From the NCBI GenBank assembly GCA_036604865.1, contig GCA_036604865.1_4856.1: a DNA stretch of 47,773 nt, one strand, 5' to 3'. The notes below the pieces were generated by a model, which saw nothing but the letters and a program-made list of their open reading frames with translations, made no database searches and was not told the origin of the DNA. Positions 7,540 to 47,000 of the stretch are shown piece after piece (within the stretch, counting starts at the first letter, position 1; every line of letters begins with the position of its first letter). Made by a program: the position numbers and the translations under genes. This DNA is from a phage.

Positions 7540-9419
<1,880 letters not shown>

Positions 9420-9435
9420 GGTTAACTCTCCACGG

Positions 9436-9558
9436 TTAGTTTGTGGTCGAATTATAACACAGGGAGATATAGCACCATGAGGCGGTAGCCAGTGCAAACA
9501 ATGGTGAGTCTGTGAGCGCGTATAGCGTGAGAAAGTAAGTGATAGGGATTATATTCAT
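9436..9558 (-). CDS. small hydrophobic peptide (40 aa)
   Basis: Not in ORF track; SD aggagg six nt before ATG; MNIIPITYFLTLYALTDSPLFALATASWCY... Confidence 0.25.
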   Translation of the reverse strand: MNIIPITYFLTLYALTDSPLFALATASWCYISLCYNSTTN

Positions 9559-9611
9559 GGGCTACCTCCTGATTAAATGATAGCAGCCCATGATGAACAA
9601 AAGATATACGG

Positions 9612-9760
9612 TGTTAGTCTGAAATCACATCATCCATGAATGCGAGCGCAGCACCTGACAGGCAGAACAGCGCGCCATAGCAAATCATCTGGTACAGAGT
9701 ATCAGCCTCAAATACCCTTGCGAATGCGTAGGCTGATAGTATCCACAGTAATGGAATCAT
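9612..9760 (-). CDS. small membrane protein (48 aa)
   Basis: Not in ORF track; ATGA overlap with gene 9757-9945; MIPLLWILSAYAFARVF... with a second hydrophobic segment. Confidence 0.3.
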
Positions 9761-9945
9761 GATCTACCCCTGTTTTCTTTGTAGAGTGCGTCGCAGATTT
9801 TTTGATACTCCCTCTGAAACCAGTCTATGTTCCTGTTGTAATCACTGCCTATTGCCTCAATCTTCTTTGTCGCCATTGCGCTTGCTGCATTAATCAATGC
9901 AACCTGAACCTCAATAGGCAGTTCTGGAAATTTTGGGCTGCTCAT
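9757..9945 (-). CDS. hypothetical small protein
   Basis: 62-aa ORF in ORF track; coupled to upstream gene. Confidence 0.4.
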   Translation of the reverse strand: MSSPKFPELPIEVQVALINAASAMATKKIEAIGSDYNRNIDWFQREYQKICDALYKENRGRS

Positions 9946-10268
9946 AACCCTGCCTCCTGCTTTGCGCGGTGAACGTATGACATAAACTTGCCAATCGGCA
10001 TCTCCTTGCGGATTTGCGCCAGAATAGCGCCGTGCAGCATCCTTTCTTCGCCAAAATACAGCTTATCAAGACGGGTTTTAATAAGTGCTCGCGTGCGCTT
10101 CATGTGGTCGCGTGCCTTAAGTGCTTTCTCATGCCATACGCGATCATTCTTCTTATCAGCATACTGCAGTTGACGATCGACAGTTTCGATTTCAAACGCC
10201 AGCTGCACGTCGTAATCTTCAAGCTGAATGATGTCTGCCTTCATAATGTCATTTAATTGGATAATCAT
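9942..10268 (-). CDS. hypothetical protein
   Basis: 108-aa ORF, charged, no motif recognised. Confidence 0.45.
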   Translation of the reverse strand: MIIQLNDIMKADIIQLEDYDVQLAFEIETVDRQLQYADKKNDRVWHEKALKARDHMKRTRALIKTRLDKLYFGEERMLHGAILAQIRKEMPIGKFMSYVHRAKQEAGL

Positions 10269-10516: not shown

Positions 10517-10676
10517 TTAGTACGTCCTCAGCAAGTTTGCGGAACATGATTTGCACTCTTGCCACCTTGCGCCACTCAGTCTCGGTGAGAATCACATCTT
10601 CCTGCTTCGGCATTCCCGACATTTCGCATGGCGGTAGCAGCTCATACTCTTGTTTCTTGCGTTTGGCTTTCCCCAT
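10500..10676 (-). CDS. hypothetical small basic protein (58 aa)
   Basis: Not in ORF track; MGKAKRKKQEYELLPPCEMSG...; SD aagggg; overlaps both neighbours, so uncertain. Confidence 0.25.
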   Translation of the reverse strand: MGKAKRKKQEYELLPPCEMSGMPKQEDVILTETEWRKVARVQIMFRKLAEDVLNEMGY

Positions 10677-11130
10677 GATGACCCCTTACATTGCGAAGCA
10701 GTGAATTGAACAGGTTGTTCACATTTACTTCATGCTCCTGCCATGAGTAACGCCACAGCTTCTTGTGGTGGTCATAGCTTCGCGTCACATCGCCGTTATG
10801 AAACATAATGCGAATGCGGCTTTTCACGATTCGGTAATCAATGCCAGTTGCGGCGCTGATTTCTTTCACTTCTGCGCCAGCACTATCAAGCAAATGGCAC
10901 TTAATCGCATCATCAATGCCTGCCGCATCATCAGAGACGAAATACTTATACTGCCATTTTCCACCGCGAATCACTGACTTCTCGCGGCGAATGAAGCCAA
11001 GTGCAAGCATCTCATGCAGACGATGCGTTGTAGTGCTTGAATGCTTTCCGCCGCAATTCTTCTCAATGTATGCGCGCGTTGCTCCTGGGTGATTCATAAT
11101 CACGCGCATTATTTGCGATTTATAGTCCAT
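10642..11130 (-). CDS. putative DNA-binding protein (winged-helix-like)
   Basis: 162 aa; two helix-turn-helix-like segments (IMRVIMNHPGATRAYI... and EISAATGIDYRIVKSRI...); inference from pattern. Confidence 0.4.
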   Translation of the reverse strand: MDYKSQIMRVIMNHPGATRAYIEKNCGGKHSSTTTHRLHEMLALGFIRREKSVIRGGKWQYKYFVSDDAAGIDDAIKCHLLDSAGAEVKEISAATGIDYRIVKSRIRIMFHNGDVTRSYDHHKKLWRYSWQEHEVNVNNLFNSLLRNVRGHHGESQTQETRV

Positions 11131-17899: not shown

Positions 17900-17993
17900 G
17901 ATTAACCCCGTAGTAGGTTCGTAGATTGAGGATGCAGCAGGGTGTCTACGTTCACCTTTTCGTCTGGCCGGACTAGCTGCACTTGTGATTATA

Positions 17994-19418
<1,425 letters not shown>

Positions 19419-19422
19419 TCAC

Positions 19423-19454
19423 CAATAAAAAATCCCATCACGTTGGATGGGATT
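19423..19454 (-). terminator. rho-independent terminator on minus strand (atcccatc-acgtt-gatgggat then T-run)
   Basis: Read on minus strand the hairpin 19432-19453 is followed by ttttttatt; located just upstream of the portal gene. Confidence 0.5.
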
Positions 19455-19488
19455 ATAACACGAGCTTGCAGTGGCTATGGTTGATGGC

Positions 19489-25631: not shown

Positions 25632-25715
25632 TTATTGCACCTCGTGAGAGTTAATGATTGCCTTAATGCGTCGACGATACCATTGCATGATGTGCTCGTT
25701 ATGCCAGTTGCTCAT
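25632..25715 (-). CDS. hypothetical small protein (27 aa)
   Basis: Not in ORF track; SD aggag six nt before ATG; stop abuts the next start; very short, so uncertain. Confidence 0.25.
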   Translation of the reverse strand: MSNWHNEHIMQWYRRRIKAIINSHEVQ

Positions 25716-25719
25716 TCTG

Positions 25720-25815
25720 TTACTCCTTATACCCTGACTTAGAAACTGCCACTGCGATAATGATGAATGCCACGATAAACAGACTGGCAATAAGTTCAAA
25801 TGCTGCGCCTGTCAT
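25720..25815 (-). CDS. small hydrophobic membrane peptide (31 aa)
   Basis: Not in ORF track; MTGAAFELIASLFIVAFIIIAVAVSKSGYKE; ATGA overlap with gene 25812-25997. Confidence 0.3.
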   Translation of the reverse strand: MTGAAFELIASLFIVAFIIIAVAVSKSGYKE

Positions 25816-25997
25816 TTCTTCGAAGCCTTATATTCATCTTCACTCATCGCATATGCCTCGCAAATCATGTTTGCCGCATCAATGATTGCATTTGAGCGCA
25901 TGTCAGCAGGCAGACTTGCAACCTGTTGTGACAATGCCATGCATATATCGCTGAACAACTTCATCTGGTCAATGTTGTACGTGCTTTCTTCTTTCAT
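25812..25997 (-). CDS. hypothetical small protein, first gene of the minus-strand early operon
   Basis: 61-aa ORF; SD gagggtga; directly downstream of the minus-strand promoter at 26028-26056. Confidence 0.45.
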   Translation of the reverse strand: MKEESTYNIDQMKLFSDICMALSQQVASLPADMRSNAIIDAANMICEAYAMSEDEYKASKK

Positions 25998-26027: not shown

Positions 26028-26056
26028 AATCTACATCAACGATGATTCTACGTCAA
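26028..26056 (-). promoter_or_regulatory. sigma70-type promoter on minus strand (TTGACG-17-TAGATT)
   Basis: Reverse complement gives ttgacg (26051-26056), 17-nt spacer, tagatt (26028-26033); opening matches cctgttgacgtaga as at 2501. Confidence 0.5.
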
Positions 26057-45207: not shown

Positions 45208-45247
45208 CCTGAATTTGACTGATGTTGATTATATCATCTCAGTGGTG

Positions 45248-46949: not shown

Positions 46950-47000
46950 TTCGATCTCCGAATTGTGTTAGCTGCTAACGTGGTGATTATATCACAGGTG

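Follow-up and report, generated by a model that had tools for sequence, protein, structure and literature searches.

Imm and Sp of phage T4 as well as gp15 of phage HK97 are small phage proteins of the inner membrane that serve in exclusion or takeover. Hok/Gef-type toxins and the lysis gene L of phage MS2 have their translation start hidden in a hairpin of the mRNA, and extended -10 promoters of the sigma-70 type (TGnTATAAT) do not need a -35 element. The two genes described here, A48 and B40, share some of their features with each of these systems. They encode hydrophobic proteins of 48 and 40 amino acids and are located in a stretch of DNA of 47,773 nucleotides (the window), which represents the essentially complete 47.8-kb genome of a Skatevirus-type siphophage.

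A48 and B40 are not new open reading frames (ORFs), and nothing sets them apart from the small membrane peptides already known to be encoded by phages. The same genes are present at the same place in Salmonella phage Skate (CPT_Skate_035 and CPT_Skate_036; MH321493) and in the Escherichia phage SusanneMuster, which is Bas79 of BASEL (Bas79_0034 and Bas79_0035; PQ850629); Bas79_0084 is likewise among the genes annotated in Bas79. In both records, proteins of 48 and 40 amino acids are deposited as coding sequences in a block that is approximately 95% identical in nucleotides, and for Skate even the ribosome-binding sites are annotated. The products are designated as 'hypothetical protein' only. 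Neither the hairpin nor the -10 element inside B40 is recorded there, nor that the two genes differ in dispensability, as reported in the present study. The two genes had been described as unannotated in the initial annotation, which is correct for the supplied track and for some records, but not for Skate and Bas79. Its remark that small phage peptides are often missed is well illustrated by B40, which has no PHROG and was skipped in ST1UNAM, IME207, seszw and VLCpiS13a. Overall, the finding is a sound correction of annotation of modest interest, supplemented by a regulatory anatomy.

The 355-nt block with A48 and B40 is matched by 150 phage records in GenBank with identities of 85-99.7%. These are mostly Salmonella phages, next to phages of E. 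coli and Shigella and one labelled as an Acinetobacter phage, and the nearest record is Salmonella phage vB_SenS_ST1UNAM. Skatevirus and its relatives constitute the BASEL cluster Bas77-81 with Roufvirus as the root (PMC11990801). We aligned the window with three records from GenBank and 33 loci from IMG/VR, which gave 37 sequences of the Skatevirus group in total. Since 62 ORFs of at least 20 amino acids overlap the 3.5-kb stretch around the locus, the existence of an ORF of 40 to 48 codons alone is no evidence for a gene; A48 and B40 stand above chance because they are conserved.

Both genes are encoded on the minus strand, at the positions for which the initial annotation had noted two short hydrophobic ORFs of this size. 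A48 (MIPLLWILSAYAFARVFEADTLYQMICYGALFCLSGAALAFMDDVISD) comprises 48 codons at positions 9614..9760 and has a GRAVY value of 1.11. Its ATG overlaps the stop codon of a 62-aa ORF (orf62, phrog_16865; 9757..9945, minus strand) as ATGA, and thus the overlap behind the suggested coupling to the upstream gene is indeed found. This neighbor is an optional insert between a 108-aa ORF and A48 and it is missing from most relatives, where the A48 start codon directly follows AGGAGGC(A/T)GGGTT or several other contexts. B40 (MNIIPITYFLTLYALTDSPLFALATASWCYISLCYNSTTN) comprises 40 codons at positions 9436..9558 (minus strand) and has a GRAVY value of 0.74. Its Shine-Dalgarno sequence AGGAGG (9564-9569, minus strand) is followed by five nucleotides (TAGCC) and then by the ATG at 9558. 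This sequence is kept in the relatives, with ST1UNAM (AGGCGG) as the exception. A gap of 16 nt separates the stop codon of B40 from the downstream ATG (9419), with which the gene for a prohead protease/scaffold-type protein of 470 amino acids begins (DUF2213, phrog_760; 8007..9419, minus strand), and the ribosome-binding site of the protease gene, GGAG, lies inside this gap. The protease gene, whose assignment agrees with the annotation of relatives, opens the head operon and is followed by those of the decoration protein and the major capsid protein.

Among the 37 sequences, the pN/pS ratios in the proposed frames (Nei-Gojobori) are 0.115 for A48 (pS 0.35) and 0.104 for B40 (pS 0.15), and the minimum numbers of substitutions at the three codon positions are 22/12/66 and 7/6/24, respectively. 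For both ORFs, four of the five other frames gave pN/pS values of 1.1-7.8. The fifth frame, which is antisense and shares the third positions, gave 0.19-0.24, and such a low ratio is an expected artefact in a frame of this kind. A48 is intact in 36 of the 37 close relatives and in 63 of 69 loci with a match in a wider set, and the full 40 codons of B40 are also present in 36 of 37. The initial annotation had proposed conservation of the frames in relatives as a check, and this is what we observed, with purifying selection (pN/pS 0.10-0.12) and with start and stop codons kept. Across lineages, synonymous sites are saturated (pS 0.55-0.95) compared with a pN of 0.28-0.48, and the two genes retain 48 and 40 codons even between lineages whose peptides are no more than about 45-63% identical, with identical residues encoded by different codons. 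B40 has exactly 40 codons in six lineages, in which its conserved residues likewise use different synonymous codons, and pN is lower than pS in all ten cross-lineage pairs.

A48 matches the profile HMM of phrog_18423, a PHROG listed as being of unknown function, with residues 1-48 on positions 1-48 of 48 (E 7.5e-37). Its invariant signature consists of Y11, R15, A19-D20, Y28-G29, F32, A37, F41, D43 and S47-D48. The AF2 model (pLDDT 87) shows a helix from residue 2 to 16, the loop FEADT and a second helix from 22 to 47; the C-terminus is acidic (DDVISD) and the net charge is -4. The Kyte-Doolittle maximum over 19 residues of the second helix ranges from 1.64 to 2.61 across the family, and by this hydrophobicity score the helix clearly appears to be of transmembrane grade. 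A48 has no match in Pfam and NCBIfam, and none was obtained in a Foldseek comparison of its model with the PDB. For B40, there was no significant profile match in PHROGs, Pfam and NCBIfam. The residues kept are F9, L12, S18, L20, A24, W28, Y35 and N36, and the AF2 model, built from a shallow alignment (pLDDT 70), consists of a helix from 4 to 15, a turn and a helix from 19 to 38. Its 19-residue maximum is 1.26-2.19 across the family with 1.26 for the peptide of the window, so its hydrophobicity would be borderline in the window and strong elsewhere in the family. The B40 peptide of the window possesses no basic residues that could orient it, and B40 ends in NSTTN. A lipoprotein signal in B40 was considered and ruled out, as there is no lipobox. 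In both peptides, the predicted first helix is only 12-15 residues long and conserved positions are spaced three to four residues apart, which suggests that they lie on one face of a helix.

Word-indexed searches for homologs yielded close relatives only, and a profile-based scan of viral contigs for A48 gave no new lineages. An exhaustive profile search in 1.84 billion representatives identified three distant A48 homologs at the same position (P0144, P0145 and P0146; 48-49 amino acids, 48-52% identity), which match phrog_18423 at E 5e-10 to 2e-12. Their contigs and contigs that we reached via proteases with 80% identity share one layout, which is found in L042-L047: an ORF of 48 or 49 codons, 53-64 nt, an ORF of 40 codons, 15-16 nt, and then the protease, decoration and capsid genes. 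In lineages with a protease of 65% identity, there is a hydrophobic A-like ORF for 49-53 amino acids, a spacer of 60-65 nt and a hydrophobic B-like ORF for 41-48 amino acids, which is followed by 15-38 nt to the protease start. No comparable upstream ORF was detected in the scan of the relatives L097-L133, whose proteases are approximately 40% identical, and the module therefore appears to be confined to the Skate/Roufvirus-type supergroup. A scan of genome contigs gave a single phage-like contig, in a Pantoea assembly, and thus no prophage copies. In the 33 IMG/VR loci, mosaic breakpoints are found at the A48 ATG and just 3' of the B40 stop codon, within CCGTGGAG, and the upstream contexts of the pair are of at least five kinds, next to two different protease N-termini on the other side. 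A48 and B40 therefore behave as a cassette. As judged from these comparisons, they seem to be an old two-gene module that directly precedes the gene of the prohead protease/scaffold protein in siphophages of the Skatevirus type and in phages related to these. We are rather confident that both are genuine, conserved genes for small hydrophobic proteins and that the module, the hairpin and the -10 element described in the following make up its architecture.

There are substantial differences between the two genes in regard to their dispensability. The Skatevirus seszw was used in a CRISPR-based genome reduction with cassettes designed per annotated gene (PMC9825161), and A48 is gene 11 of this phage. 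The viable and plaque-purified mutant seszw_200L carries an in-frame deletion of 45 nt in A48, by which residues 18-32 (15 codons) including three invariant positions are gone. The seszw isolate in which A48 is disrupted forms large plaques. Moreover, A48 is frameshifted in the relative L036, has decayed to a pseudogene (MIPVL*...) in both Klebsiella phage VLCpiS13a and L074, and is lacking in 25 loci of the Klebsiella type, in which B40 was kept. A48 is thus accessory and can be lost without loss of phage viability. B40 is intact in all these genomes and loci with lost or damaged A48, and of the 94 loci with a match, 90 contain it intact and at its expected length. The four exceptions represent three genomes, namely L077 (a metagenomic contig) with a frameshift, L073 with a lost stop codon, and Akira, which was fetched twice, with a replaced C-terminus. 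By this pattern of presence and absence, B40 is the core member of the pair and kept almost everywhere, whereas A48 was lost repeatedly. The sequence of B40 is unchanged in all listed mutants of seszw. However, the seszw annotation lacks B40, and as the cassettes followed the annotated genes, B40 was presumably never targeted in that study.

The translation start of B40 is surrounded by an RNA hairpin (9555..9593, minus strand) with the Shine-Dalgarno sequence in the loop and the 3' arm and the AUG in the stem. In the window, the hairpin has a folding energy of -20.4 kcal/mol (z -2.96 to -3.7) and AGGAGG is partly paired. Ten divergent versions, which differ in sequence and register, all fold with -15.4 to -24.8 kcal/mol (z -2.1 to -6.6). 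In the Skate clade, all substitutions in the arms preserve pairing, the stems of the Klebsiella-type loci and of L042 differ by a matched insertion of 2 nt in both arms, and in L090 and L091 an unrelated stem of 10 bp (AGGCUUUCAU/AUGAAAGCCU) also pairs the AUG. Altogether, a hairpin over the Shine-Dalgarno sequence and the AUG was found in 12 versions and in seven of eight lineages, with L093 and L094 as the only ones without it. Positions 9300-10000 gave no match in Rfam at E up to 1. A function of the hairpin as an intrinsic terminator was ruled out, as no U-tract is present 3' of it on either strand, and an RNase III site was dropped because the stem comprises only 11-15 bp. According to the computed structure, the hairpin probably throttles the translation of B40. 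There are 20 nt between the stop codon of A48 and the stem, which is also found where A48 is absent, and a coupling of B40 to an upstream terminating ribosome is therefore implausible. The strong ribosome-binding site attributed to B40 in the initial annotation thus holds in regard to the perfect AGGAGG and its spacing, but a perfect site does not imply strong translation here because AGGAGG and AUG are sequestered in a conserved hairpin.

At the other end of the gene, codons 34-36 of B40 (Cys-Tyr-Asn) coincide with an extended -10 element (TGTTATAAT; 9451..9459, minus strand), which is directed at the protease/scaffold gene and located 31 nt ahead of its ATG. The window contains five copies of TGNTATAAT compared with 1.67 expected, all of them on the minus strand, i.e. 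the gene strand. Four of these copies precede the protease/scaffold gene, the portal gene, the major tail gene and a tail gene for 238 amino acids, with 20-36 nt between copy and gene start, and the whole genome of Bas79 contains exactly these same four. In addition to the one at 9451, elements of this kind are located at 19452, 45228 and 46986. The form TG(T/G)TATAAT is kept without exception in 66 distinct sequence contexts from different lineages, and a change of the B40 cysteine to tryptophan retains TGN. The lineage with 65% identity possesses TGATACAAT or TGGTATACT at the matching position and distance from the protease. In Akira, a gene for a DUF559 endonuclease is inserted directly after the element, and a second TGATATAAT is found approximately 30 nt before the displaced protease start. 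A simple sigma-70 scan did not report the TGTTATAAT site, because there is no recognisable -35 element. On the basis of its conservation pattern and its match to the consensus, TGTTATAAT is probably the promoter of the head operon. This putative promoter would also explain why the last 16 codons of B40 hardly vary. Since these codons are nearly invariant and the synonymous diversity of B40 is lower than that of A48, part of the B40 conservation seems to be due to overlapping DNA and RNA signals and not to the peptide. In several lineages, a small second stem (CCAC/GTGG, CCACGG/CCGTGG or CCGCG/CGCGG) links the stretch from -10 to +1 with the GGAG of the protease. The idea that this stem hides the protease Shine-Dalgarno sequence on read-through transcripts only was left aside, since z values of -1 to -2.7 indicate a weak stem and two lineages lack it.

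Concerning the function of the module, A48 and B40 are each predicted to form a hydrophobic helix-turn-helix and would likely be inserted in the inner membrane of the host. They may represent the last cistrons of an upstream operon in which small accessory genes are grouped, with Lar-like and MarR/Ren-like proteins among the other products, and the transcripts of the head genes would begin inside B40. The B40 gene would then be built around two regulatory signals, the hairpin at its start, which may keep translation low, and the -10 element in its last codons. By analogy with other systems, a start locked in a conserved stem suggests the dose-limited expression of a membrane-active product. 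As the main explanation, we tentatively suggest a dose-limited and membrane-targeted effect on the host, which might consist in the exclusion of incoming phage DNA or in the modulation of a membrane protein or the membrane potential; it is a possibility that we regard as somewhat unlikely in this specific form. Takeover or exclusion is compatible with the accessory nature of A48 and with the Lar-like and MarR/Ren-like neighborhood. The four alternatives, in which B40 is a coupling ORF or a regulatory by-product or in which the peptides are holin-like or a type I toxin, rank below it.

It is unlikely that B40 is mainly a cis-acting leader or coupling ORF, for which the sequence of the peptide would be secondary. 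The hairpin would then limit the entry of ribosomes on read-through transcripts, and the ribosomes terminating 16 nt before the protease ATG would set the early level of the protease/scaffold protein, while transcripts from the internal promoter would escape this control. The position of the B40 stop codon fits well, as it is found 15-16 nt before the protease in Skate-type and Klebsiella-type phages, in L042-L047 and in L093/94, and about 38 nt before it in L090/91. The conserved hairpin at the start, the retention of B40 where A48 was lost and the small stem that ties the -10/+1 stretch to the protease GGAG in several lineages also argue for it. However, a pure leader ORF would lack both the purifying selection at the peptide level and the conserved hydrophobic two-helix pattern, and the second stem is weak and missing in two lineages.

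We also consider a more elaborate version of a membrane effect, in which B40 would be a dosage-gated membrane effector fused to a switch between accessory and head genes. A hairpin-limited trickle of B40 would be made from read-through transcripts only, and firing of the promoter would give transcripts without B40, so that the peptide would be made only in a defined period preceding head assembly and would act as a timing or checkpoint device. If true, the near-universal presence of B40 and the repeated loss of A48 would reflect this timing role. We regard it as quite unlikely.

Class II holins and pinholins have two transmembrane domains, and A48 and/or B40 might therefore be thought of as lysis-timing factors of the holin, antiholin or pinholin type, since they are small, have two hydrophobic helices and seem to be tightly limited in expression, as expected for membrane-active proteins. 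This is very unlikely. The known holins with two transmembrane domains comprise approximately 65-95 amino acids, and with 40-48 amino acids A48 and B40 are well below this size. The genome also possesses its own lysis cassette with holin, endolysin and spanin (Bas79_0016-0019), which is located about 4 kb from the locus, and A48 and B40 are placed outside of it between accessory and head genes. In addition, the C-terminus of A48 is acidic and not basic, the seszw mutant with disrupted A48 forms large plaques, and there is no similarity to holin families in PHROGs, Pfam and NCBIfam.

Another explanation would be that B40 is no functional protein at all and that the region is kept for the head-operon promoter and the hairpin, with an incidental open frame. 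Several observations point in this direction: there is almost no variation in the 3' third of B40, whichever codon position is considered, the pS values are low with 0.15 for the Skate clade and 0.04 for the Klebsiella-type clade, TGNTATAAT determines the residues C/W-Y-N, the hairpin encloses the start codon, and most gene callers pass over B40, for which no PHROG exists. Nevertheless, codons 2-24, which lie outside of both signals, contain 17 synonymous compared with 13 amino acid variants, and the excess at third positions is seen over the whole ORF. Six lineages keep the 40 codons and the position of start and stop at a pS of 0.67-0.90 and a pN of 0.28-0.48, and F9, L12, S18, L20, A24 and W28 are encoded by different codons. 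In L090/91, the hydrophobic B-like ORF persists, although the -10 element is found at or after its stop codon and not inside. The view that B40 is regulatory DNA only is thus contradicted by codon-level evidence outside both signals, as read from the alignments, and we consider it highly improbable.

Finally, B40 might be a toxin in a pair resembling type I toxin-antitoxin systems, with silencing through antisense RNA and mRNA folding, but this is extremely improbable. B40 does have the size and hydrophobicity of such a toxin, a sequestered Shine-Dalgarno sequence and AUG, comparable to the toxin start that is sequestered by folding in hok-type mRNAs, and a weak promoter-like site on the opposite strand, from which transcription would cross the start region (GTGAGA-17-TATATT, 9527-9555, 9/12 matches). 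However, sites of this kind are at chance level (three found, 4.7 expected), the antisense -10 reads TATGTT in most relatives, where codon 2 is AAC, there is no antitoxin or sRNA match in Rfam, and the phage is virulent, with no chromosomal or plasmid copies and one phage-like contig in the scan. The antisense promoter at 9527-9555 was rejected as being at chance level and not conserved.

Next to A48 and B40, a similar hydrophobic peptide of 31 amino acids had been noticed at positions 25720-25815, and it proved to be real. This peptide, C31 (MTGAAFELIASLFIVAFIIIAVAVSKSGYKE; 25720..25815, minus strand), has a GRAVY value of 1.41, appears to be a membrane-type peptide with a single pass and matches phrog_35977, which is listed as of unknown function, at E 9.8e-23. 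Its gene is ATGA-coupled to an upstream ORF for 61 amino acids (25812..25997). In a DNA search, the C31 region matched 155 phage records and most of the matches start at the C31 ATG, while the 61-aa ORF as query gave two loci only. C31 is intact in four genomes with different flanks and is labelled 'membrane protein' in seszw and Akira. As its 5' part is gone from many genome-reduced mutants of seszw, C31 is dispensable.

B40 is present in at least 66 distinct genome contexts in Skate-type phages of Salmonella, E. coli, Shigella and Klebsiella, and most pipelines skip it; several Skate-type phages are under development for biocontrol. The gene would also be an example of overlapping codes, with three codons fixed by the -10 element and the gene start fixed by an RNA stem. 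Since A48 was lost repeatedly and B40 almost never, a knock-out should preferably target B40. A simple transcription map would result for this group of phages if the four copies of TGNTATAAT are promoters of structural genes. The probable head-operon promoter in the 3' end of B40 had not been noted in the initial annotation, nor had the dispensability of A48 and the near-universal occurrence of B40.

In comparison with known systems, A48 and B40 resemble Imm and Sp of T4 and gp15 of HK97 as short membrane-type proteins encoded among phage accessory genes, and A48 shares with these proteins that it is dispensable in the laboratory. They differ from them, however, as Imm, Sp and gp15 are larger and show no homology to A48 or B40. 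With Hok/Gef-type type I toxins and with lysis gene L of MS2, B40 has in common that a small hydrophobic peptide has its ribosome-binding site and/or start codon folded into a stable and conserved stem. In contrast to these, there is no sequence similarity, two helices instead of one are predicted, and no antisense RNA is evident. The TGNTATAAT copy in B40 corresponds to extended -10 promoters in being a perfect match approximately 30 nt before the protease and in having no -35 element, and it is repeated before three structural blocks. Unlike the usual extended -10 element, it is located inside a coding frame, where three codons are fixed by it.

The extended -10 element TGNTATAAT lies on the minus strand upstream of three structural genes, namely at 19452-19460 before the portal gene (start 19415), at 45228-45236 before the gene for a 238-aa tail protein (start 45207) and at 46986-46994 before the major tail protein gene (start 46949), with distances of 20-36 nt to the respective starts. 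A further minus-strand copy, at 17988-17996, is located within a gene and is not conserved. The related phage Bas79 possesses the identical set of elements before its structural genes and no further copies. Judged from sequence, the elements in front of the portal, 238-aa tail and major tail protein genes are candidate promoters of the structural genes.

At the portal, a terminator-like hairpin with a T run (cccatccaacgtgatggg, about 19418-19451, minus strand) directly follows the -10 element on its 3' side and occupies the space right before the portal ATG. Such an arrangement of a promoter and an immediate terminator could point to control by antitermination; alternatively, the hairpin may do no more than end transcription of the operon upstream. 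That the structural genes depend on an essential activator in the form of the 162-aa MarR-like/Ren-like "transcription factor" (10642-11130, minus strand), which is encoded together with the small hydrophobic peptides A48 and B40 in the operon upstream of the protease/scaffold gene, is unlikely, since its counterpart, gene 7 of phage seszw, is missing from the viable genome-reduced mutant seszw_200L.

In divergent intergenic regions of the window, a second promoter-like motif, TTGAC(G/A)...TG(A)TGTAGATT, is repeated at seven or eight sites, on the plus strand at 2505, 11876, 14624, 20398, 29560, 45248 and 47001 and on the minus strand at 26028. The hexamer GTAGAT is present at its -35 as well as its -10 position. 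These sites look like a family of early promoters, which would perhaps share a common operator.

The seszw_200L mutant also lacks approximately 45 nt, and shows an additional 1-nt gap, close to the 5' end of its protease/scaffold gene (L049, MZ375333; 1796-3039). Partial loss of A48 and a deletion in the protease gene thus occur together in this genome, whose record annotates the protease gene as truncated. The protease change may be an in-frame deletion that the phage tolerates, or it may stem from a fault in the sequencing. The N-terminus of the protease/scaffold protein also differs among relatives: an optional extension of 44 aa (9288-9419, minus strand), which matches phrog_3684, is carried by the window and is missing from Skate, seszw and several others, and the junction is a GGAG common to both forms. 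Among bacterial genomes the protease has a single match, at 98% identity, on a 20-kb contig of a Pantoea eucrina assembly (L053, NZ_JAOBTT010000003.1); this contig is probably phage DNA carried over with the culture and not a prophage.

Downstream of C31, the gene of a 31-aa membrane-type peptide, there is a 28-codon ORF (MSNWHNEHIMQWYRRRIKAIINSHEVQ, 25632-25716, minus strand), the ribosome-binding site of which overlaps the C31 stop codon. DS8 has this ORF as well, whereas Bas79 lacks it and L038 carries a different sequence in its place; it may be a further small optional gene.

In ST1UNAM (L002), which at 99% identity is the closest relative, the AGGAGG before B40 (9564-9569 of the window) is replaced by AGGCGG, and the record annotates neither A48 nor B40. 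In some relatives, homing-endonuclease genes adjoin the A48-B40 module: an HNH gene is located directly upstream of A48 in Skate (L050, 412-918), and in Akira (L051/L019) the stretch downstream of B40, directly 3' of its -10 element, is occupied by an oppositely oriented DUF559 gene, which is followed by a bidirectional terminator-like hairpin.
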